A stretch of 64,000 nt of DNA from a virus: the IMG/VR virus record IMGVR_UViG_3300029813_000075, positions 9,554 through 73,553 of that record; one strand, 5' to 3'. Positions 9,237 through 55,568 of this stretch are shown one piece after another. How positions within the stretch are numbered: the stretch's first letter is position 1; each line of letters starts with the position of its first letter. The notes below the pieces were generated by a model. It was not told the DNA's origin. It did not search any database and was given only the letters and a program-made list of their open reading frames with translations. The translations under genes were made by a program, and so were the position numbers.

Positions 9237-9982
9237 AAGTCTGAGAGCTTTGCCTGGTCGTGCAACGGAAATTCAATGCCTAGCCTTCGCGCAAGATTTA
9301 CTGATCGTAGCCACGTCATTGGTTCCTTTTTTCTCATACCAGGAAAGACACAAAATACAGGACATATGTTACACCCTGTACTCTGGATTCCGCCAAAGCC
9401 ATGTTCATCCAGAATCATGTCGACATCCCTATCCGAGCAGTCACGGAGAGGATAGTAATACATCCGACTGTTACGCTTGTGAACTCGAATGAGTGTATCC
9501 TGATTACGTAGTTCGGCCATCCGAAATCTTCTCATCTTCGCCCCATCAGAACCCTTGAGACCAAGTACCAGCACCACATCATCATCGAGCAAATCTATGT
9601 AATTGTCCATTGGCTTCTTCTTCAGCACATGACAACAATAGAAGTAATTCTTGTAAAATTTCCCTGTATCCTTCTTCTTCTTCAAAACCCGGGGGATCTG
9701 TTTGAATGACTCCTGAAGTATGTCTCTGATTGGCCTGTCACCATCATATTTCGTAGTCACAAGTTCATAGCCTGTCAACTCTTGAAGTCGGTGCAGAACA
9801 TCTTTGGCTCCACCTCTATTTAGACCAGTATCATTGAATGCCATGACTACATCCTTAATGTCAACATTCCAAGCTTCAAGCACCATAGCTGTTGAGTCAC
9901 GACCACCACTTGCCAAAATCACCACCTTGCGATTGGTTGGTAATTGGCTATAGTCGGGTCTATGAACAACCATTCCTCTCAA
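9224..9982 (-). CDS. PAPS-reductase-family (PP-loop) protein with PIP-like C-terminus
   Basis: ASGGRDS PP-loop, NDTG, CCHVLKKKP, LGLKGSDG..R, YPL.D, TGCNICP; ends QAKLSDFCNG. Confidence 0.88.
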   Translation of the reverse strand: MRGMVVHRPDYSQLPTNRKVVILASGGRDSTAMVLEAWNVDIKDVVMAFNDTGLNRGGAKDVLHRLQELTGYELVTTKYDGDRPIRDILQESFKQIPRVLKKKKDTGKFYKNYFYCCHVLKKKPMDNYIDLLDDDVVLVLGLKGSDGAKMRRFRMAELRNQDTLIRVHKRNSRMYYYPLRDCSDRDVDMILDEHGFGGIQSTGCNICPVFCVFPGMRKKEPMTWLRSVNLARRLGIEFPLHDQAKLSDFCNG

Positions 9983-10395: not shown

Positions 10396-10410
10396 TTACG
10401 GGACTCGTAA
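10396..10410. promoter_or_regulatory. Palindromic site TTACG-N5-CGTAA, copy 2
   Basis: TTACG-ggact-CGTAA between divergent ORFs 10341(-) and 10419(+), next to TTATAATA. Confidence 0.65.
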
Positions 10411-30168: not shown

Positions 30169-30189
30169 TTATTACGGAAATAGTAATAA
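30169..30189. promoter_or_regulatory. Palindromic site, one-mismatch copy
   Basis: TTATTACG-gaaat-AGTAATAA upstream of the long plus-strand block. Confidence 0.55.
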
Positions 30190-36927: not shown

Positions 36928-37215
36928 ATGATGTTCGATGAAAGACGTGATCGCACACAGGACAAGGGTTGTTGTGTGGTCTGTGACAGATGTACGTGGT
37001 TTGCTAGGGCGGGCCAGTTCTATAAGATAGGTGACAAGATGTTCTGTCTTGAACACTATCTTAAGGCAAGGGTGCTGTACCTTGGTTCATCCACACCGCC
37101 TGAGTCCCTAGACCCGATAGTTAACAACCTCAAGAAGCAATGGCGCGCTTCTACTAAGTCTGGCAAGAAGAGCAAGAAGTCCAAGAACAAGGCAAAGCCA
37201 ATCAAGGCAAAGTGA
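36928..37215 (+). CDS. Small zinc-finger protein with basic tail
   Basis: CDRC...FCLEH. Confidence 0.6.
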   Translation: MMFDERRDRTQDKGCCVVCDRCTWFARAGQFYKIGDKMFCLEHYLKARVLYLGSSTPPESLDPIVNNLKKQWRASTKSGKKSKKSKNKAKPIKAK

Positions 37216-38224
37216 AAGGATGCTTCGCAAAGTACGGCTTCCATAGGTTGGCGTAATGGTCTCTGATTGAGTATTCTACCGTGTCTGTTATCTCACCGTA
37301 TAACTTCTGTGACGGTATCTTTGAACATATCAGTTGGGAAACTGCATAGCATAGAGATACAGCCAATATCTTCGGATTCTTCCCAACGTAGTCGCGGGGA
37401 GTTAATTCATCAGCAACAATTCTGACTGCCTTTTTCAGTTTCTTAAAGAATTTGCTATGGTCTTCGCCCTTTCTTTCTATCCTGTCAGTCAACACAGGAC
37501 TTCTCTCAAGATCGGAGATCATCTTGGGTATCCATTTCTTGAATGATGCTGCCATATGGAATGTGATATCCATATTGTCTTGCATCCACACCTTGTATCT
37601 GGTAAGATAGCGGGGTTTACTATTTGGTATATACACGTCAAGCACCTGCTGATCAGAGAATGGTGCTCTTCGCTTTCTCAGCACTGCCACCAGGCATGTG
37701 CAACCAAGTCTGGCGTTATTGACGAACATGTCAGGAGACTTCAATTTCATTTGCTTTTTGGTCTTTTGAAGAAGATATGAAGCCTCATCTCTAATGGAGT
37801 ACGATATCCCGAGCACTGAGCATGTTCGATTGAGCCTTATCAGGGATCTAAACAATGGTTCATTGGAACCGATCTTGGTACTCATCTCGTATCTGTATTT
37901 CAGTCTGCGGAACTTTGTTTGATTGGCTGGATGCAATGGCTTACTAGCAGCGTCAAAGAATCGTCTCTTTGCATGGTGCCCCATGTAGCTCCCCATTCCA
38001 TCAATTATGTTTGGGCGATTCCCAATCGACACAAACTGAGTTGCTGGAGGTTTGTTCTGTTTTATGATTTCGCCTGCTTGATATGTTGGATTGACCATAA
38101 TCCGATCATGGACTGTCCCACATGTATCACAGACCATGTATCCATTGATTCTATCATGGGTGAGTCCACTACCGCAGTGTTTACATATTCCGTTCCCTGG
38201 CTTCACTTGTATTTGCATTGTCAT
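37202..38224 (-). CDS. tfb: Transcription initiation factor TFB (TFIIB family)
   Basis: Zn ribbon CKHC..CDTCG.V, B-reader-like DGMGSY.G, two cyclin folds (RTC..LG...IRDEA; GKNP..LA...Y), C-terminal HTH SQK...VEYSIRDHY; likely ATG 38224. Confidence 0.92.
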   Translation of the reverse strand: MTMQIQVKPGNGICKHCGSGLTHDRINGYMVCDTCGTVHDRIMVNPTYQAGEIIKQNKPPATQFVSIGNRPNIIDGMGSYMGHHAKRRFFDAASKPLHPANQTKFRRLKYRYEMSTKIGSNEPLFRSLIRLNRTCSVLGISYSIRDEASYLLQKTKKQMKLKSPDMFVNNARLGCTCLVAVLRKRRAPFSDQQVLDVYIPNSKPRYLTRYKVWMQDNMDITFHMAASFKKWIPKMISDLERSPVLTDRIERKGEDHSKFFKKLKKAVRIVADELTPRDYVGKNPKILAVSLCYAVSQLICSKIPSQKLYGEITDTVEYSIRDHYANLWKPYFAKHPFTLP

Positions 38225-38444
38225 TACATTCCACCGATTTGACATATTTATCAACAAATTCAAGACGTTGCATCCCCTTTGCCCAAACTCGAGGGGGGTA
38301 ACATTCATAGCAGCTTAGTGCTACTATGATGGTGTCAGTCTTGGGAAGCAGATTGATGCTATTGACATTTGGAGTGCCACCACACGAACAGATGTTATCG
38401 AGTGCGATGGCTATCTTGTCAATGTCAACTTTTTCTTTGCTCAT
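38181..38444 (-). CDS. Small zinc-binding protein
   Basis: CSCG...CYEC; first gene of the TFB operon. Confidence 0.55.
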   Translation of the reverse strand: MSKEKVDIDKIAIALDNICSCGGTPNVNSINLLPKTDTIIVALSCYECYPPRVWAKGMQRLEFVDKYVKSVECNDNANTSEARERNM

Positions 38445-38504
38445 TGTTGTCCCACACTGGCATGAGATTGGTCACTCATAAATGTTAGTGTTTGAAAACC
38501 TTTT

Positions 38505-38519
38505 TTACGTACCGCGTAA
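38505..38519. promoter_or_regulatory. Palindromic site TTACG-N5-CGTAA, copy 3
   Basis: TTACG-taccg-CGTAA between the TFB operon (-) and the morphogenesis block (+). Confidence 0.65.
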
Positions 38520-38528
38520 TTACTACGA

Positions 38529-38957
38529 GTGGTCACTATGACAGAAGAGGAAAAGGTCACTGAGGCTGAGACGCCAACAATTGAGACGCCAACAACATTC
38601 AAGGTTGACGAACCCAATATACCTGAGTCAAAATCGGCAATGCTTGTTCGGGGCAAACGCAGAAGTGGGGGCAAAGTCGAACCTGCTGAAGCCGAGATTG
38701 AACTTGAGTGGAATGAAGATTGGGAACCTAGATGCCCCATCTGTGGCAAACCCATAGTAGGTAAGTTTGCAGTCAAATGTCCTATCTGTACTGAGGACAC
38801 AATCATGCATCAGTATTGTTACGATGCACATTGGATCAAGGAACATCGAGATCAGGCAATTGTGGTCAGGATAGAGATAGAACAGCACATGGACAAGCAG
38901 GGCAAGTTCTCAGATCCAACTGGTAAATGGGCAATCTCACATGGTCAAAATGCTTAA
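38529..38957 (+). CDS. Hypothetical protein with C-terminal Cys/His finger
   Basis: Acidic disordered N-terminus; CPIC...CPIC...HQYC. Confidence 0.65.
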   Translation: MVTMTEEEKVTEAETPTIETPTTFKVDEPNIPESKSAMLVRGKRRSGGKVEPAEAEIELEWNEDWEPRCPICGKPIVGKFAVKCPICTEDTIMHQYCYDAHWIKEHRDQAIVVRIEIEQHMDKQGKFSDPTGKWAISHGQNA

Positions 38958-39531: not shown

Positions 39532-39996
39532 GTGATCTATGTGCCCATACAGATTGAGGTCTCTACAAATGTAGAGCAGGCATCTCCTGCTCATGTTTTG
39601 GTTGTCGGAGCCAGGAAAATAGTCGAAAGTCTGACTAGCAGTTATGATAGGGAACTGCAGAGATACAATAAACGACTCAGACTGTTGACTGAGGACCGTC
39701 TTGTATTGCGTAGCCGTCATTCGTCAGGCGGTAAGGACTATCACAGTCGCTATTTTTATGAGAGATATTGGTGTGAGAAAGACAACAAGATCAAGCAAAA
39801 GTTTGTTGGCAAGGCTGTGCCAGAAGATTGGGTGCCCACTGGTGGGTTCCCTTCAGCACCAGTTAATCCAATTGAAGGACTCGAGTGTTCTTTGATTGGT
39901 GGCAATGCCATAATGAAAGCAGACATGTACGAAAGATTCATCCGTCTGTTCGTAGGTCATTTCGTGACACCAATGTTGGCGTGGAGTGATAATTAA
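39532..39996 (+). CDS. Hypothetical protein (YxY..RYW...KFVGK motif)
   Basis: TAATG overlap with the portal; function unknown. Confidence 0.6.
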   Translation: MIYVPIQIEVSTNVEQASPAHVLVVGARKIVESLTSSYDRELQRYNKRLRLLTEDRLVLRSRHSSGGKDYHSRYFYERYWCEKDNKIKQKFVGKAVPEDWVPTGGFPSAPVNPIEGLECSLIGGNAIMKADMYERFIRLFVGHFVTPMLAWSDN

Positions 39997-41483
39997 TGGC
40001 TGTCTTTCTCAGGGAAGATGATTTCCCGACCCCCACTGAACCGTTGCCTATCGAACTGATAAACAGTGAATCTGCTAGGTATATAGCATCACAGAAGCTC
40101 TTGCAAGAGTTTGGAAGGGGCATAGTCAGTATTCCGAGACCTTCTGATCGAAAGTGGGGGGCTAAGCACGACTATGAGATGAAGACCTACGGTGAGATTT
40201 ACAAGAAGGTTGAAATCGTCTATCGTGGTATTAATGTCACTGCTCAGCACACTATGGCCCCTGGATATCGAATCATAGGAAATGATGCTAGTAATCTCGA
40301 GAGGATTCAAGAATGGTCTGAATACATTGGCTTGCATCACACACTCCATAATGTTGTCAGGCATCTTATGATCTGGGGCAACTGTTTCATCGAGCCAGTA
40401 GTCGACAAGAAGAAGCGTACAGATTGGAACGTAATAGAACTCAAGTTGCTTAATCCTGATACCATGTATGTCTATGCCAAAGAGGTCGGGGATATCATTG
40501 GCTACATTCAACATCCTCTTAGCAGACGATGGCGATGGCAGTTGGGTAGGCTTCCTGATAAGCTTAGATCTACTGGCAGGACATATCGCAGTTGGAAGAA
40601 AGAAGTCAAGGACACAGATCCTAGGGCAGTGGTCTTTGATGCTAAGGATATTATTCATCTCAAATGGAATCCTATGCCAAACTCGTACTATGGTGTGAGT
40701 CCGATTGAGGCCATGAAACGCACTCTCACGACTTACGTAGGCATGTTGCAAGATCTATCTGTCATGATCAGAAGCTATGGCACCCCCATGATTGTATGGA
40801 AGATGGGCAGTCCAGAGAGACCTGCAAGCGAGAAGTTCATGCGTGACTTCAGAGAAGCCATGTCAAAGAGAAACATCGGTGACGATCCTATCATTCCAGG
40901 CATTGTGGAGTGGGAAGTGGTCAGTGCTGGTGAAAAGGCCATGCAGATCGAGCCTTACATCCGAGCACTCAGAGATGATATGTTTGCTGGAATTGCAGTC
41001 CCAGAAGTGCTCCTTGGTGGAACCTCATCAGGTGGGCTTGCTGGTTCTGAGGTTCAGTTAGAAGGATTCAGCAGAAGGATGATTGAAGTCCAGCAGTTCC
41101 TTTCTGATATGTGTAGAAAGCAGTTATTTCCACGTGAGATTGATATCGGAGTTGCACCATTCAGCAGACCCGAGTGGACTTCTATTCCTAAGTTATTGTT
41201 CAACCCACCAGAGACCACAGAACAGAAGTATCTGAGAATATCGACAATCATCAACAGCAATCTTGGCACCATTGAAGAAGGCCGAGAGATGTTGGGTCTG
41301 GATCCTAATATCCCTAAGGGTGAGAGGATGATTGACTTGCAGAAGGAGCTTAAGAAGATGGAAGGTCAGATAGCTGCCACAAGAGCCAATGCAACAGGTC
41401 CGGCCAAGACAACTGATCGCGCAAAGGACAAGACCTCATCTCAAAAGCCAAAGGAGAGTCCGACACCTCAGCAAGGCAGGTAG
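39996..41483 (+). CDS. Portal protein
   Basis: IWGNCFIE, IIHLKWN..YYGVSPIE, GTPMIVWK.G, VPEVLLG; 495 aa upstream of the protease and MCP. Confidence 0.92.
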   Translation: MAVFLREDDFPTPTEPLPIELINSESARYIASQKLLQEFGRGIVSIPRPSDRKWGAKHDYEMKTYGEIYKKVEIVYRGINVTAQHTMAPGYRIIGNDASNLERIQEWSEYIGLHHTLHNVVRHLMIWGNCFIEPVVDKKKRTDWNVIELKLLNPDTMYVYAKEVGDIIGYIQHPLSRRWRWQLGRLPDKLRSTGRTYRSWKKEVKDTDPRAVVFDAKDIIHLKWNPMPNSYYGVSPIEAMKRTLTTYVGMLQDLSVMIRSYGTPMIVWKMGSPERPASEKFMRDFREAMSKRNIGDDPIIPGIVEWEVVSAGEKAMQIEPYIRALRDDMFAGIAVPEVLLGGTSSGGLAGSEVQLEGFSRRMIEVQQFLSDMCRKQLFPREIDIGVAPFSRPEWTSIPKLLFNPPETTEQKYLRISTIINSNLGTIEEGREMLGLDPNIPKGERMIDLQKELKKMEGQIAATRANATGPAKTTDRAKDKTSSQKPKESPTPQQGR

Positions 41484-41538
41484 TTCCTTGTAATCAGGAT
41501 TCTTTGCTCATAGATTACAAAAGAAAACGTCTAAAGAA

Positions 41539-41545
41539 TTATAAG
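41539..41545 (+). promoter_or_regulatory. TATA-like box for the protease-capsid operon
   Basis: AAAGAA-TTATAAG, preceded by the inverted repeat TTGTAATC/GATTACAA. Confidence 0.45.
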
Positions 41546-41593
41546 TCCGATGCCGTAGTTCTAGTTGGTGACTCCTGTTCAACGGTGATTTCA

Positions 41594-43039
41594 GTGCCAC
41601 GAAGGGTTGAGGCGTGTGTTGCAGCCACAAAGCGCACACTACACAAACGATATCCCAAGTGGTCTGACAAGCGCATTAATGATCGTGCTTGGGCAATATG
41701 CCAAGACCTTGAGAACAGGGGCAAGTTGAAGGATAGTGCTGACATGAAGCCCAAGATGTTCTTTGTAGAATCCAAGATCATAAAGAGAATGGGTTCTATG
41801 ACTGAAGCTATGGAGTGGCTTGGTGATAATGCGACTCTCACTCCATTTGCCGAATCTCTTCTTGCAGCTGAAAAGGGAGAAGCTGGTAATACCAATTTCC
41901 CACTTTCTATTACTGGCAGTTACACGACTACATCTCTCGACCTTGACGGAGCTGGATCTAATCATGCTATTTCTGAGTCAACCACAGAAGATCCAGCAGT
42001 GTCAACGCACATCCTGATTGCTGGCACTGCCATCAGTACTGGCACAACCAGGAACCTTCATACCTTCTTGAGCAAAGAGTTGGAAAAGGCATGCCCCACA
42101 CTTGCTGGAAAGCCCATCCAACTTGATCATAGTCACAAGTCTGAGGACAACATAGGTAAAGTACTCGCATCTGCATATGATCGAGACCCTGAAATAATCA
42201 AATACATTGGTAGGATTCGTGAGGCTCATGCCGTTACTCCTGCTGTTTCCTCAGGTGACATAGACACCGTATCAGTCGGTGGCTTTGCCAGGGACATGAT
42301 ATGCAACATCTGTGGGGAGTCTAAGGTACCTGACTCTGCTGGCAGAATTGCATGTAATCATAGACTTGGCCGAATCTACGAAGGCCAACGGGCAACTGCC
42401 ATTGGCATTGACATAAATTTCGTAGAATTATCCGTAACCCCTATTCCAGCCGACCCCAGAGCATCTGCTGGCGTAATGACGCATGACTCAATGCAGTCTG
42501 CGTTAGTTGCTCTGGCCGAATCATACATTGGAGCTGATTCAAGCGTGAGTGAAGAACCCGATCAAAGTGTCCAACTCGTGGAGAAGGACACTCTAATTGA
42601 AAAGCTTCAAGTAGAACTCAAGGCAAGTCACACGCGGGAGCGTAAAAGGCTGGCTGAGGGGATTGCTGAAGCTGAGGTAAAAATGGGAGTCACTGCTCCC
42701 AAGGAAAAATCCAACAGGGTCACTTCTCTTTCAGAGAAGTCTATTGAGACCCTTGAGGAAGTGAAATCTACCGTTGACCGACAGTTGGAAATGTTCTTGC
42801 GAAAGCAGGATGATGAGCCAACTTCGAGAGGTAAGACAATTGAGGAATCTCCCGGAGTTGCCGATGAGTTGACCTGGGGAGAGACCAAAGCCGTTGTACG
42901 TGAGATGCTATTTAATTTTGGCCCGCCATCCGCTAGCGCTAAGCGCTCTACCAGTGGGATGATAGGAGATCCACAGTTTGAACAGCATCGTAGGTACAAG
43001 GAAATATTTGCCAAGCAAGAAGGGGGTAGAATAGAATGA
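41594..43039 (+). CDS. Prohead protease fused to a scaffold-like coiled coil
   Basis: IAGTAIS...TL.GKPIQLDH, VSVG, FVELSVTPIPAD; helical C-terminus; GGTGA RBS before GTG 41594. Confidence 0.85.
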   Translation: MPRRVEACVAATKRTLHKRYPKWSDKRINDRAWAICQDLENRGKLKDSADMKPKMFFVESKIIKRMGSMTEAMEWLGDNATLTPFAESLLAAEKGEAGNTNFPLSITGSYTTTSLDLDGAGSNHAISESTTEDPAVSTHILIAGTAISTGTTRNLHTFLSKELEKACPTLAGKPIQLDHSHKSEDNIGKVLASAYDRDPEIIKYIGRIREAHAVTPAVSSGDIDTVSVGGFARDMICNICGESKVPDSAGRIACNHRLGRIYEGQRATAIGIDINFVELSVTPIPADPRASAGVMTHDSMQSALVALAESYIGADSSVSEEPDQSVQLVEKDTLIEKLQVELKASHTRERKRLAEGIAEAEVKMGVTAPKEKSNRVTSLSEKSIETLEEVKSTVDRQLEMFLRKQDDEPTSRGKTIEESPGVADELTWGETKAVVREMLFNFGPPSASAKRSTSGMIGDPQFEQHRRYKEIFAKQEGGRIE

Positions 43040-43638: not shown

Positions 43639-44715
43639 ATGGCACAAGCACTAACTAATCGTGTTGAATATGGTAGTGGCCTGGTCAAATTTGACGAGGA
43701 TGGCTACACCAACATATACAGCATCGATGAGATGATCAAGACCAAAGTTGACGTCTCAGAACTACGTAAGCAGGCTATGTTCAAGCAGTCCTGGAAGCTG
43801 CAAGAAGTTGACGACATTCTCACACGAGATGTTGCTCGAATCTTGATTCCAGAGATACTGAATGAGCAGATCCAGACCAAGGTGGAAGAAGCTCGTATCT
43901 GGCGAGGTCTAGTAGACGTTATTCGCGTCAAAGGGCCGACATTCTCTTGGCTCATAGAGGAAGGATTTGAAGCAAGTCAAGTTCCTGAAGGTGCCGAAAT
44001 CCCAATTCAGCACGCAACGTGGAAGAAGGAGCACGCTTCAATAATCAAGAATGCAGTTCGCTGTGTGATCACTCGTGAAATGATCGAGGATTCTGCATGG
44101 GACATCATAGGCCGACACGTCAATCAAGGCGGTCTTGCTATGGCAAGGCTAGAAGATTGGATGATCGGTAGCGCACTAAACGATGGTGTTCCAAATGGTC
44201 TAGCAATCTCCGCTGGAGTAGGCGGTGTTGGCAGCAAAATCGAGAGCCATAGGTTCAAGATGGGCGCTGACACTACTGGTAATCCATTGACTTGGCGTGC
44301 TATTGCAAAAGCTCTTACAATTCTGAGGGTTGAGAACTATACACCCAACGTGATGGTAATTCACCCATACCAGATGTACGACCTTCTGACAATGGAAGAG
44401 TTCATTGGCTTCAATGAGAGAGCATATCTGACCCTACCAACGCAGTTGACCTCTGCTATGACCACTGGAACCATTGGTTCAATTGGTGGCATGCGTGTTG
44501 TAGTCTCTGCTAATCAGCCTGCTGGACAGGTGTTGATATTCAACAGTGGAGTCTATGGTGTGCTTGCAGAACGCAGACCTGTGAGCCTTGATCGCTATGA
44601 CGACTACATTCGCCAGATGGAAGGACTAGCTCTGAGCCAAAGACTCATTGCTGTTGCGATCAGACGAGATGCCGCTGTGATGCTCACCGCTGGAAAGACC
44701 ACTCTAGTGACCTAA
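43639..44715 (+). CDS. Major capsid protein, HK97 fold
   Basis: LIPEIL, VPEGAEIP, TREMIEDS..DI, VMVIHP, IGGMRVVVS; 358 aa. Confidence 0.93.
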   Translation: MAQALTNRVEYGSGLVKFDEDGYTNIYSIDEMIKTKVDVSELRKQAMFKQSWKLQEVDDILTRDVARILIPEILNEQIQTKVEEARIWRGLVDVIRVKGPTFSWLIEEGFEASQVPEGAEIPIQHATWKKEHASIIKNAVRCVITREMIEDSAWDIIGRHVNQGGLAMARLEDWMIGSALNDGVPNGLAISAGVGGVGSKIESHRFKMGADTTGNPLTWRAIAKALTILRVENYTPNVMVIHPYQMYDLLTMEEFIGFNERAYLTLPTQLTSAMTTGTIGSIGGMRVVVSANQPAGQVLIFNSGVYGVLAERRPVSLDRYDDYIRQMEGLALSQRLIAVAIRRDAAVMLTAGKTTLVT

Positions 44716-53243: not shown

Positions 53244-55568
53244 ATGTCCGAGTCTCTTCCTGGAGTCAAAGTAGAACGTAGAGAAGGAGCATTGGCGACA
53301 GCACTGCCAGTGAGCCTTAACACGCTTGCCATTGTTGGCACCGCCAACAGAGGTCCAATCAATATTCCTATCGTGATCAACAGCGTATCGGATGCCTATG
53401 ACATATTTGGCTTCCCCGATGTTTACAATAGCACTAGCGAAGGTCAAGAATTGTCCTTGACACGTGGCATCCAAATCGCAAACGATGCAGGTGCATCATA
53501 CATCTATGCAACTAGAGTTGCTTCAAGTTCTGCTGCCAAATCCACACGCATTCTATATGGTGACGGTCAACCAACGCACGATGTAGTCACAATATCGGCA
53601 GCTTCTGAAGGAACTTGGGGAAACGATTTGCAGTTCAAAGTCGAGATTGCTGATGGTCAGACTACTCTCGACAATCATGTTGATTCTCATTTTGGATTTG
53701 TTGAGGATGAAGATCTCTCCCCAACAATAACTCAAACCGCAATTGGCACACAAGAATTTTATTACTATGCAATTACAAGCGCGGCCAATTACTATGCTGA
53801 TGCGAGTGCTAACAACTCGGTAGTGATCACTTATGCTAGTGGCCCTGCTGTGTCAATGATCATCCAACACAGTGATGCCCATCTGTTTCTGACCTCTGCT
53901 GAGGCGGATCCAACAACTCATATCTTTGAATCGAATGATGATCTCCTTGCTCAGACGTTCACTACCATTGACTCTGTGTGGATTAAAGCGGTTAGACTTA
54001 GGATCAAATATGCCGTAGCCGTGCCAGCAACTGGTGATATGCTTGTGTCCATCAAGGCTGTTGATGGAAGCACTGGATTACCAACTGGATCTGCACTTGT
54101 GAGCAAGACTCTTGACATGAGCACATTTGGCGCTCAGGGTGCCCTTGGTACTGCATATGCAACTAAAACATTCGTGTTCGCTACTGCTTACAAACTGGAT
54201 GCAGAGACCATGTACGCCATTGAGGTGTCTAGCTCAGGCGGATGGACAGCAACAGCAGAAGTTTACTTTGGTGGATTCAGAGCTGCGCAAACAGCCGCAG
54301 ATGCTAACACCTATACAAAGGGAGTTGCATGGTTCAATCCTAGCACTGGTTATGTGGCATCTGACGGTGTTGCTGGTGAGGTCCAAGATTGGGCATTTGA
54401 TATAGTCCATGAGTTGCCAGAAGGATACTGTGAGCTGGTGATCAAGAATTGGGGAACCTCATATCCATCTGCTCAATTGAAGCACATTAGATGGTCTGAT
54501 TCAAACACCCCCACAGCAAGTGACGACATAAGCACTCTTGATTATTTCACTGCTGAGTCCAGACTTGTCACTCTGAAGTACGGTGACACAAAAGAGAAGT
54601 TCTGGGTAGTTGATGGGAACGATCTTGTCACCGACATAACTGCTAACTCGAGTCTATGCACCGCAGCCGTAGCCACATACCCCACAGAAGAAGTAGAAGA
54701 GACCACAGGATGGCAACAATTCGGCATCGGCACCGGGACAGCAGGTAACAACGGTGCAATTGATGTGGCATCTACTGACTATGGAAAGGGATTTGCATCC
54801 CTTGAACAGTATTATGTTCACGTAGTCTCTGCTGCTGGGAGATTTGATAGAGCAACCATTTCTGCTCTAGTATCTCACTGTGAGAACATGGCTGAACAGA
54901 AGAAAGAGAGGGTTGCTGTTGCAGGTCATGGATTTGGTAAGTCCCTTGCTGAGGTTATGGCATCATCAGGTGCATATGCTTCCGAGAGGTTATCATTTGT
55001 CAGTCCAGGCATCCTGAGAACCAATGCCTTCACGGGGAATGTGGAGACCCTAAGTGCGGCATATACAGCTCAGTATCTTGCTGGATGGTTGACTCGAGGC
55101 GACATTTCCGAGTCCAATCTTTACAAAACGGTCAACGTTGCTGGTCTTGAGACCTCTTACACGGAAAATGAGGCTGACCAAGTAGCCCAACGTAGAATCA
55201 ATCCCGTCACTGAAATGTCAGAAGGCGGTTACAAGTGGCGAGAGTCAATAACAACTTCGACTGACACATCGAAGCGTGAGATCACCACAGTACGTATTGT
55301 GGATTTTGCAAGTTATGGACTTAGATCTTTGCTTAATTCTTTCATGGGTAAGAAGAATCTACCTGGGATGAGATCTGCAATCAAAAATTCATGTACAGGA
55401 TTCCTAAAGACAATGAAAAATAGGCAGATGCTGTACAAAAATGAAGAACCACCATTCACTGTGGATGTAATAGCCAATAGGGACAATCCAACTCATGTGG
55501 ATGTGATTGTGTCTATAAGACCTGTGTTTGCAATCAAATACATCAATCTGATATTTTACGTGAGGTAA
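53244..55568 (+). CDS. Contractile tail sheath with large inserted domain
   Basis: AIVGTANRGP.N.P..I.S..DA..IFG, EGTWGN, INP, RIVD, V.IRPVFAIKYI. Confidence 0.93.
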   Translation: MSESLPGVKVERREGALATALPVSLNTLAIVGTANRGPINIPIVINSVSDAYDIFGFPDVYNSTSEGQELSLTRGIQIANDAGASYIYATRVASSSAAKSTRILYGDGQPTHDVVTISAASEGTWGNDLQFKVEIADGQTTLDNHVDSHFGFVEDEDLSPTITQTAIGTQEFYYYAITSAANYYADASANNSVVITYASGPAVSMIIQHSDAHLFLTSAEADPTTHIFESNDDLLAQTFTTIDSVWIKAVRLRIKYAVAVPATGDMLVSIKAVDGSTGLPTGSALVSKTLDMSTFGAQGALGTAYATKTFVFATAYKLDAETMYAIEVSSSGGWTATAEVYFGGFRAAQTAADANTYTKGVAWFNPSTGYVASDGVAGEVQDWAFDIVHELPEGYCELVIKNWGTSYPSAQLKHIRWSDSNTPTASDDISTLDYFTAESRLVTLKYGDTKEKFWVVDGNDLVTDITANSSLCTAAVATYPTEEVEETTGWQQFGIGTGTAGNNGAIDVASTDYGKGFASLEQYYVHVVSAAGRFDRATISALVSHCENMAEQKKERVAVAGHGFGKSLAEVMASSGAYASERLSFVSPGILRTNAFTGNVETLSAAYTAQYLAGWLTRGDISESNLYKTVNVAGLETSYTENEADQVAQRRINPVTEMSEGGYKWRESITTSTDTSKREITTVRIVDFASYGLRSLLNSFMGKKNLPGMRSAIKNSCTGFLKTMKNRQMLYKNEEPPFTVDVIANRDNPTHVDVIVSIRPVFAIKYINLIFYVR

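Follow-up and report, generated by a model that had tools for sequence, protein, structure and literature searches.

A virus-borne TFB/TFIIB homologue with an apparent place in a TFB paralogue family of Asgard archaea

The 64,000-nucleotide stretch analysed here, positions 9,554 to 73,553 of the IMG/VR virus record IMGVR_UViG_3300029813_000075 and called the window throughout, carries on its minus strand a gene whose product, P0001, resembles the archaeal transcription factor TFB and human TFIIB. The gene is an intact minus-strand open reading frame (ORF) at window positions 37202-38308. The ATG at 38224 is its most likely start and is preferred over 38308, because the gene callers and all homologues begin there, which gives a protein of 340 amino acids. 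A second TFB-like copy was not found in the whole 76-kb record, where P0001 is the sole member of its family. The gene and its parts are the following:

37202..38224, minus strand: TFB-like gene encoding P0001 (340 amino acids), from the ORF, the start given by homologues and gene callers, and the family profile
38102..38191, minus strand: C4 zinc ribbon, residues 12-41 (C14, C17, C32, C35), from the translation, Pfam, the AlphaFold2 (AF2) model and an alignment with preinitiation complex (PIC) structures
37931..38101, minus strand: segment resembling the B-reader and B-linker, residues 42-98, with DGMGSYMG and without EWRF, from motif comparison
37571..37930, minus strand: RLK linker motif and first cyclin repeat, residues about 99-218, from hidden Markov model (HMM) alignment with 1ais_B, 1d3u_B and human TFIIB, and from the model helices at 99-218
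37205..37570, minus strand: second cyclin repeat, residues about 219-340, opening with a family-specific insert of about 18 residues, from alignments
37253-37276, minus strand: recognition helix EYSIRDHY of the helix-turn-helix (HTH) at the C-terminus, from the translation; it corresponds to D-V283-T-I-R286-Q-S-Y of human TFIIB
37202-37204, minus strand: stop codon of the TFB-like gene

Domain architecture and fold of P0001

Taken as a single sequence, P0001 does not reach the thresholds of the curated families TFIIB (Pfam: PF00382) and NCBIfam TFIIB (NF001658). Its sole Pfam match is Zn_Ribbon_TF (Pfam: PF08271) with an E-value of 0.006, which is below threshold, and PF00382 is not matched. 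The NF001658 model aligns over the full length, with 25.3 bits against a cut-off of 384. A phmmer search of the PDB with P0001 alone gave zero matches.

The relatives of P0001 give a clearer signal. An exhaustive HMMER search of 1.84 billion representatives returned 166 cluster representatives with an E-value of at most 1e-3, nearly all of them 300-360 amino acids long. From these relatives 60 sequences were taken into a family alignment (A1), and 44 of the 60 members match PF00382 at E-values of at most 0.01. The profile made from A1 finds human TFIIB (29vf_M) with an E-value of 4.3e-23 and the Pyrococcus woesei TFB core (1ais_B/1d3u_B) with an E-value of 8e-22, the latter with both cyclin repeats aligned.

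The AF2 model of P0001 has a mean predicted local distance difference test (pLDDT) score of 85 and consists of a three-stranded ribbon, a disordered segment at residues 45-80 and two helical repeats. The ribbon cysteines are spaced as CxxC-x14-CxxC and its three strands are short, while the pLDDT falls below 50 at residues 45-54, 58-68 and 76-79. All top Foldseek matches of this model are TFIIB or TFB chains. The structural alignments with VIA gave Z-scores of 14.2 for 1c9b_A, 14.1 for 8s52_M (residues 13-340, so including the ribbon) and 13.6 for 1d3u_B. Overall the TFIIB/TFB matches lie at Z 14.2-13.1 with 16-18% identity, and cyclins come next at a Z of about 12.5 with 6-8% identity.

The gene therefore encodes a full-length, virus-borne TFB/TFIIB homologue with ribbon, linker, two cyclin repeats and C-terminal HTH. 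This domain order had been read from the sequence in the original prediction, together with a variant recognition helix SIRDHY. The translation, family profile, AF2 model, Foldseek and VIA all bear out the former, and EYSIRDHY is indeed read at 37253-37276.

Conserved and changed residues

We compared P0001 with two sets of sequences, 15 canonical Asgard TFBs and the cellular TFB-like family described below, at the highly conserved positions of each. In the cellular family 63 positions have a conservation of 90% or more, and P0001 retains 41 of them. Among the residues kept are the ribbon cysteines, the RLK linker motif, GxxNP, Y293 and Q306 of repeat 2, and the E-Y-S-I-R-D-H of the recognition helix. 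The family signature, made up of DGxGSYxG, RLKxxY, GxxNP, (T/S)Q and EYSIRDH together with the insert in repeat 2, is present in P0001.

Several features of ordinary TFBs are changed in the family and the virus alike: EWRF is lost, the RGRS of repeat 1 is replaced, and repeat 2 begins with about 18 inserted residues. The canonical B-reader (GPEWRAF ... RxRxGxP), which serves ordinary TFBs in start-site selection, is not found in P0001, and its E-W-R-F, R62, R64 and P68 are lost from the cellular family too. The family-specific DGxGSYxG motif stands just after the lost B-reader positions.

In the C-terminal HTH, the alignment places an arginine of the type that contacts the TFB recognition element (BRE): R321 aligns with R286 of human TFIIB, and Y318 takes the position of V283. 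V283 and R286 are the two residues that Lagrange and colleagues in 1998 and Tsai and Sigler in 2000 are said to have found in contact with the BRE. Alignment A3 shows no variation at R321, D322 or H323.

A TFB-like family in Asgard archaea

All named relatives of P0001 come from Asgard archaea, on contigs of up to 876 kb. A scan of the GTDB species genomes gave 252 family loci, and the lineages and neighbours reported here are those of the best 80. Almost all of these 80 are Asgard loci (Odin, Baldr, Jord, Atabey, Frey, Thor, Hermod, Hel and Promethearchaeota), closed chromosomes included; the exceptions are one record labelled Thermoplasmatota and one labelled Bathyarchaeia. The family was not found in 100 other genomes from the phylum of the match labelled Thermoplasmatota. 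Within the Asgard phylum, 119 of 151 sampled genomes have the family (E-values of at most 1e-70), mostly as a single copy.

The same Asgard genomes encode several canonical TFBs, which match PF00382 with E-values of 1e-14 to 1e-28, against only about 1e-3 to 1e-5 for the family member. With the family HMM the order is reversed: the highest scores, 365-436 bits, go to cellular members, followed in the locus scan by viral members (325-354 bits) and, far below, by canonical Asgard TFBs (119-144 bits). P0001 itself scores 358 bits, a value that is somewhat favoured because the profile included viral sequences. A quick IQ-TREE run with 64 sequences separates the family from the canonical TFBs with a support of 100. 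Judged by these scores, residues and trees, P0001 is a member of a TFB paralogue family separate from the general TFBs, and the view of it as a diverged general TFB, which the original prediction had taken, gives way to this placement.

The cellular genes have characteristic neighbours. In 53 of 78 loci the gene directly downstream of the TFB-like gene encodes an ATPase of the T2SSE type; most other loci have such a gene no further than 6 kb away. In 57 of 80 loci an ORF for an Rpo8-like protein, a label that rests on Pfam matches below threshold, lies at most about 1.2 kb upstream, mostly 150-210 nucleotides away and on the same strand in all but one. A locus in a metagenome-assembled genome (MAG) of Thermoprotei (L127) has the order RpbG, TFB-like gene, small ORF and T2SSE, and its TFB-like protein branches beside the Asgard family. 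Examples of the module are found at L046:5425-7008 and L034:4375-6999, and it is also present in L004 and L006.

A module of this kind has been described within the type IV pilus (T4P) systems of Pyrobaculum and Thermoproteus as 'subclade 4D'; it comprises an ATPase, a membrane protein, a TFIIB variant and RPB8, and a transcription-related role was suggested for it (PMC4858521; PMC13705601). In gene content and order the Asgard module of Rpo8-like protein, TFB-like protein and ATPase appears to be the counterpart of this published module of Thermoproteales. Within the literature searched, no paper describing an Asgard-wide version was found. A near-universal Asgard module that was previously noted only in Pyrobaculum and Thermoproteus bears on the diversification of the TFIIB family in the lineage closest to eukaryotes.

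A conserved motif, CTGAAAnnTAGTTAGG, is shared by many Thor and Hermod species (among L022-L087) about 25-35 nucleotides upstream of the start of the cellular TFB-like gene. The Hermod version is GAAAGTCAGGTTAAGA, and the motif sits between the Rpo8-like and TFB-like genes (about 5930-5945 in L046). The upstream 14-mer occurs a single time in a closed chromosome (G003). The motif may be a gene-specific promoter or an autoregulatory site.

A clade of mobile elements and the likely host

In a FastTree phylogeny of 227 sequences P0001 falls into a clade of 27 members with a support of 100, which contains none of the 80 cellular loci. The quick IQ-TREE run likewise puts the cellular sequences into one group (88) and the mobile-element sequences on one side of a branch (77). 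The viral trio around the query stands on a long branch there, so that long-branch effects may bear on its placement, and its order relative to the other mobile-element and cellular groups is not fixed by this tree. Nesting of the viral gene within one host class was considered and rejected; the quick tree leaves the relation of viral trio, mobile elements and cellular sequences undecided.

Near identity to a host TFB, which the original prediction had named as a finding that would speak against it, is not seen: identity to any cellular protein in the homologue search is at most 33%. Closer relatives at 96%, 86-82%, 70% and 50% identity are all full length. All clade contexts that were inspected, the window and eight others, are viruses or mobile elements. 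Two of them, L002 and L003, share the window's gene order. In the more distant L108 (about 23-28% identical) the major capsid protein (MCP), protease and portal genes are followed by three small genes and then by the TFB-like gene, facing away. The position beside the portal-protease-MCP genes is thus kept in relatives with 96% and 70% identity and even in one with about 23-28%. The contig L109 consists of small ORFs and was binned with a Thorarchaeota MAG. The island L110 lies in a 319-kb contig of a MAG from an uncultured archaeon, which encodes a cellular family gene (L051) as well. L128-L130 encode tyrosine integrases, a D5-type primase or ParB. Another capture is seen in P0008 on the 209,735-bp contig L001 (JGI Ga0373620_0000060): this protein groups with a Helarchaeota sequence within the cellular clade.

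The partners of the cellular gene do not accompany the viral one. Neither the T2SSE-type ATPase nor the Rpo8-like gene was found in the 76-kb record, whose completeness is estimated at only 49%, or in the eight other mobile-element contexts, and the linkage that marks the cellular family is therefore missing from the viral gene.

An Asgard host is well supported, because the named relatives of P0001 come from Asgard archaea and elements of the clade are found in Asgard MAGs. The phylogeny of the TFB-like protein, which the original prediction had proposed as an indicator of the host, points to Asgard archaea and does not settle the class. The host of this virus lineage is uncultured. When 20 kb of the window were compared by BLAST with 400 Asgard-phylum genomes in search of a CRISPR or other host link, only short matches were obtained, and the three loci inspected lay outside repeat arrays. 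A profile search of IMG/VR with alignment A4 returned only L002, and P0001 had no match in the GenBank phage set. In one Asgard-phylum MAG (G497), short contigs (C65, C164; L121) are 64-76% identical at the DNA level to the portal and MCP genes; they look like a related virus binned with an Asgard genome and are weak evidence on the host.

The viral genome around the gene

The source is a 76-kb IMG/VR virus record with a CheckV completeness of 49%, which encodes PolB, DNA methylases, a helicase, a portal protein, an HK97-type capsid protein and a tail sheath. Since portal, HK97-type capsid protein and tail sheath are present, we take the source to be a large contractile-tailed archaeal virus of at least 76 kb, without a close relative in GenBank. 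The TFB homologue accordingly lies on a bona fide virus genome. The features around it are the following:

36928..37215, plus strand: convergent ORF of 95 amino acids, Cys-rich and Lys-tailed, sharing 14 nucleotides with the 3' end of the TFB-like gene; Pfam unmatched
38181..38444, minus strand: conserved Cys-rich ORF of 87 amino acids (CxC...CxxC), from tblastn; Pfam unmatched
38445..38537, no strand: divergent intergenic control region between the unit of the 87-amino-acid ORF and TFB-like gene and the block on the morphogenesis side, highly conserved in L002 and L003
38505..38519, no strand: palindrome TTACG-N5-CGTAA, from its copy count in the window and its conservation in L002 and L003
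38529..38957, plus strand: first plus-strand gene after the control region, with ATG 38538 a likelier start than GTG 38529; family search unmatched
39996..41483, plus strand: portal protein, start of the head module (Pfam Phage_portal, E-value 3e-19)
41504..43039, plus strand: putative head maturation protease/scaffold, a weak assignment (phrog_18299, E-value 0.0025)
43639..44715, plus strand: HK97-type major capsid protein (PHROG major head protein, E-value 1.6e-18)
53244..55568, plus strand: tail sheath (phrog_279, E-value 4.5e-41)

The best PHROGs for the putative protease, phrog_16951 (E-value 5e-10) and phrog_2774 (E-value 1.4e-7), have no assigned function. With tblastn the MCP gives weak matches to the MCP of Halogranum tailed virus 1 (E-value 9e-5) and to the MCPs of several bacterial jumbo phages.

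The TFB-like gene forms a minus-strand unit by itself, with plus-strand blocks on both sides, and is transcribed away from the portal-protease-MCP block. The original prediction had described this divergent transcription across a palindrome, and both hold: the unit is on the minus strand, the structural genes are on the plus strand, and TTACG-N5-CGTAA at 38505-38519 lies between them. The interval 38225-38528, which the original prediction had taken in together with the gene, is not simply a promoter, as most of it is occupied by the conserved 87-amino-acid ORF. This ORF overlaps the start of the TFB-like gene by 44 nucleotides and is 95% identical in L002 and 79% in L003, with an in-frame indel of 3 nucleotides that preserves the frame; in L003 the gene callers missed the ORF. 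It is probably the first gene of the TFB-like transcription unit, and its product could be a partner of the TFB-like protein. The absence of TBP and RNA polymerase (RNAP) subunits, also part of the original prediction, holds for TBP and Rpo8, which were not found in the 76-kb record; the RNAP-related search covered these two only, and other RNAP subunits were not searched.

The control region contains T-rich and TTTAT boxes, read by eye. The palindrome occurs in the window in three perfect copies and two with one mismatch, where 0.38 copies (perfect or with one mismatch) are expected. Its arms are invariant and its spacer is variable in L002 and L003, and the flanks align as TTTACG-N5-CGTAAT. 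The perfect copies lie at 2264-2278, 10396-10410 and 38505-38519 and the copies with one mismatch at 30172 and 59419; at three divergent junctions the palindrome stands 3-19 nucleotides upstream of the start codon of the first plus-strand gene. In this it resembles a viral operator or core-promoter element.

Proposed role and alternative explanations

We know of no archaeal virus that encodes an RNA polymerase. The timing of archaeal viral gene expression is largely unexplained, and P0001 is a concrete candidate for a promoter-specificity subunit owned by a virus. The reading that we favour, to which we give a probability of roughly 0.4, is that P0001 is a viral promoter-specificity factor derived from the Asgard counterpart of the 'subclade 4D' TFIIB-variant family. 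Its ribbon would dock on the host RNAP and its cyclin core would sit on the host TBP-DNA complex, while the recognition helix (Y318-S-I-R321-D-H) would read a BRE-like element different from the canonical TFB element. The polymerase would in this way be steered to a subset of promoters, most likely the viral middle or late ones, and P0001 would act as a specificity factor and not as a general TFB. Reliance on host parts is suggested because the 76-kb record is without TBP, Rpo8 or the ATPase partner. As a family-specific segment stands in place of the B-reader, P0001 probably handles start sites differently from ordinary TFBs.

That paralogous TFBs can redirect promoter choice is established in archaea by TFB2 and TFB3 of Sulfolobus (10.64898/2026.09.06.749720; PMC6101594). 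The fixed place of the gene facing the head module would fit a control of the morphogenesis genes, and a sigma-like switch that redirects the host RNAP to late promoters, as originally predicted, is plausible. More doubtful is the wider idea that Asgard archaea and some Thermoprotei run a second, specialised initiation system, made of the TFB paralogue, the Rpo8-like protein and the ATPase, from which Asgard viruses and integrative elements captured only the TFB-like subunit long ago, with tailed viruses keeping it beside their morphogenesis genes as a late switch. If this were true, P0001 would be an archaeal analogue of the late sigma factors of phages, derived from a dedicated host pathway and not from the general TFB.

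Several observations weigh against a promoter-specificity factor. P0001 retains just 25 of the 74 positions conserved in canonical Asgard TFBs, and the B-reader residues E49, W50, R51, F52, R62, R64 and P68 are Q, A, G, a gap, T, F and G in P0001. The fixed linkage of the cellular family to a T2SSE-type ATPase hints at a specialised and not a general role. No shared BRE/TATA-like motif was found by eye in 35 upstream regions of the window, nor was the upstream motif of the cellular genes, CTGAAAnnTAGTTAGG, found in the window. The role proposed here for P0001 is read from sequence and context. A complex prediction of the P0001 core (residues 95-340) with an Asgard TBP had a score of 0.00, which we count neither for nor against binding.

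The lost B-reader also invites another explanation, in which P0001 is a decoy or shut-off factor that binds host TBP-promoter complexes or the RNAP dock and blocks the transcription of host or defence genes. On this view P0001, with its B-reader diverged, could not complete initiation; the canonical motif is indeed gone and the segment is predicted to be disordered. Archaeal viruses do encode repressors directed at RNAP, such as ORF145/RIP of ATV (PMC5123050), and TFB3 is a TFB paralogue that need not be a stand-alone initiation factor (PMC6101594). We nevertheless consider a decoy unlikely. The replacement of the B-reader (DGxGSYxG, RLK) is conserved across the cellular family, which is present in 119 of 151 Asgard genomes, and therefore looks like a functional variant and not like decay; moreover the recognition helix is strongly constrained, which a simple decoy would not need. 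About as improbable is that P0001 replaces or competes with the host family member, the presumed partner of the T2SSE-type ATPase and the Rpo8-like protein, and so takes over what their module does, be it a dedicated, perhaps ATP-assisted, transcription pathway or a non-transcriptional machine that handles DNA or RNA. The near-constant link of the cellular family to the ATPase (directly downstream in 53 of 78 loci), the upstream Rpo8-like ORF (57 of 80), the same module in the Thermoprotei MAG and the description of the Pyrobaculum/Thermoproteus module as possibly 'transcription-related' (PMC4858521; PMC13705601) all speak for such a substitution, as do the 41 of 63 family-conserved positions that the virus keeps. 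On the other hand, none of the nine contexts of the mobile-element clade has an ATPase or Rpo8-like gene. The viral clade is strongly diverged (at most 33% identity) and sister or unplaced with respect to the cellular sequences, not nested among them, which argues against a simple substitution for the host protein.

That the gene is a mere passenger, a recently captured or decaying copy of a host TFB without a role in the viral cycle, we regard as very improbable. Exchange with host genes does occur in the family, as the place of P0008 beside a Helarchaeota sequence indicates, but the frame of the TFB-like gene is intact, its relatives are full length down to 50% identity, and its position is kept even in a virus with about 23-28% identity (L108). 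The closest cellular relative reaches only 33%, and the mobile-element sequences form a clade of their own (FastTree 100, quick IQ-TREE 77).

Relation to known systems

Virus-encoded TFBs are already known, including in Asgard viruses. Homologues have been annotated in the Asgard virus WyrdV1 and the mobile genetic elements (MGEs) 10H_0/7H_42 (10.1101/2021.07.29.453957), in JinchiV1, baiyanviruses, PBV300 and some rudiviruses (PMC13700489), and in YSH_150918 of the Aoguangviridae (PMC10768690). P0001 adds to this class. Like P0001, the published viral TFBs stand on archaeal viruses without an RNA polymerase of their own and are proposed to recruit the host transcription machinery; P0001 is set apart from them here by their descriptions. 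What is new is the placement in the 4D-type Asgard family, the near-universality of this family in Asgard archaea and the clade confined to mobile elements with conserved synteny, as well as the place opposite the head module that the gene keeps in a large contractile-tailed virus.

The nearest described relative in kind is the TFIIB variant arCOG05559 of the 4D module, which is TFB-like and diverged as well, has a Zn finger and a cyclin fold, and is encoded in an operon with a VirB11/T2SSE-type ATPase and RPB8/Rpo8. It was published as specific to Pyrobaculum and Thermoproteus and with a single cyclin domain (PMC4858521), whereas the family reported here is Asgard-wide and has two repeats, and the copy in the window is viral and without ATPase or Rpo8 partner. 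The putative link between the two is drawn from the module order of L127 and the published description (PMC4858521). Canonical TFB/TFIIB (P. woesei 1AIS and 1D3U, human 1C9B and 1VOL, and the PIC structures) has the same domain order and fold as P0001, and both keep the HTH arginine equivalent to R286 and the GxxP, Y and Q of repeat 2. They differ in sequence, with 16-18% identity, and in the recognition helix, which is EYSIRDH in P0001 instead of EVTxRNRY. Sulfolobus TFB2 and TFB3 are also paralogues with specificity for a subset of promoters, but they are cellular and belong to different lineages (10.64898/2026.09.06.749720; PMC6101594); TFB3 is without B-finger and second repeat (PMC6101594), whereas P0001 is full length.

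Further observations

The Pfam TBP model had no match at E-values of at most 1e-5 in the closed Thorarchaeota chromosome G003 (CP070658), and four other Asgard genomes have 2-4 TBP repeat matches each, which corresponds to one or two TBP genes. The gap in G003 may reflect a masked stretch or a diverged TBP.

For the longer relatives P0052, P0060, P0112, P0141 and P0148 the domain search turned up nothing informative. In three long proteins a domain of the TFB-like family is fused to other sequence: P0141 (850 amino acids) has leucine-rich repeats, P0148 (798 amino acids) a GP88-like domain, and P0052 (2330 amino acids) about 1900 residues without a Pfam match.

The contig L001, which carries P0008, encodes almost only small ORFs without Pfam matches and in addition a PriL-like primase subunit. 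L001 may represent a very large Asgard virus or MGE whose TFB-like gene was captured independently and more recently.

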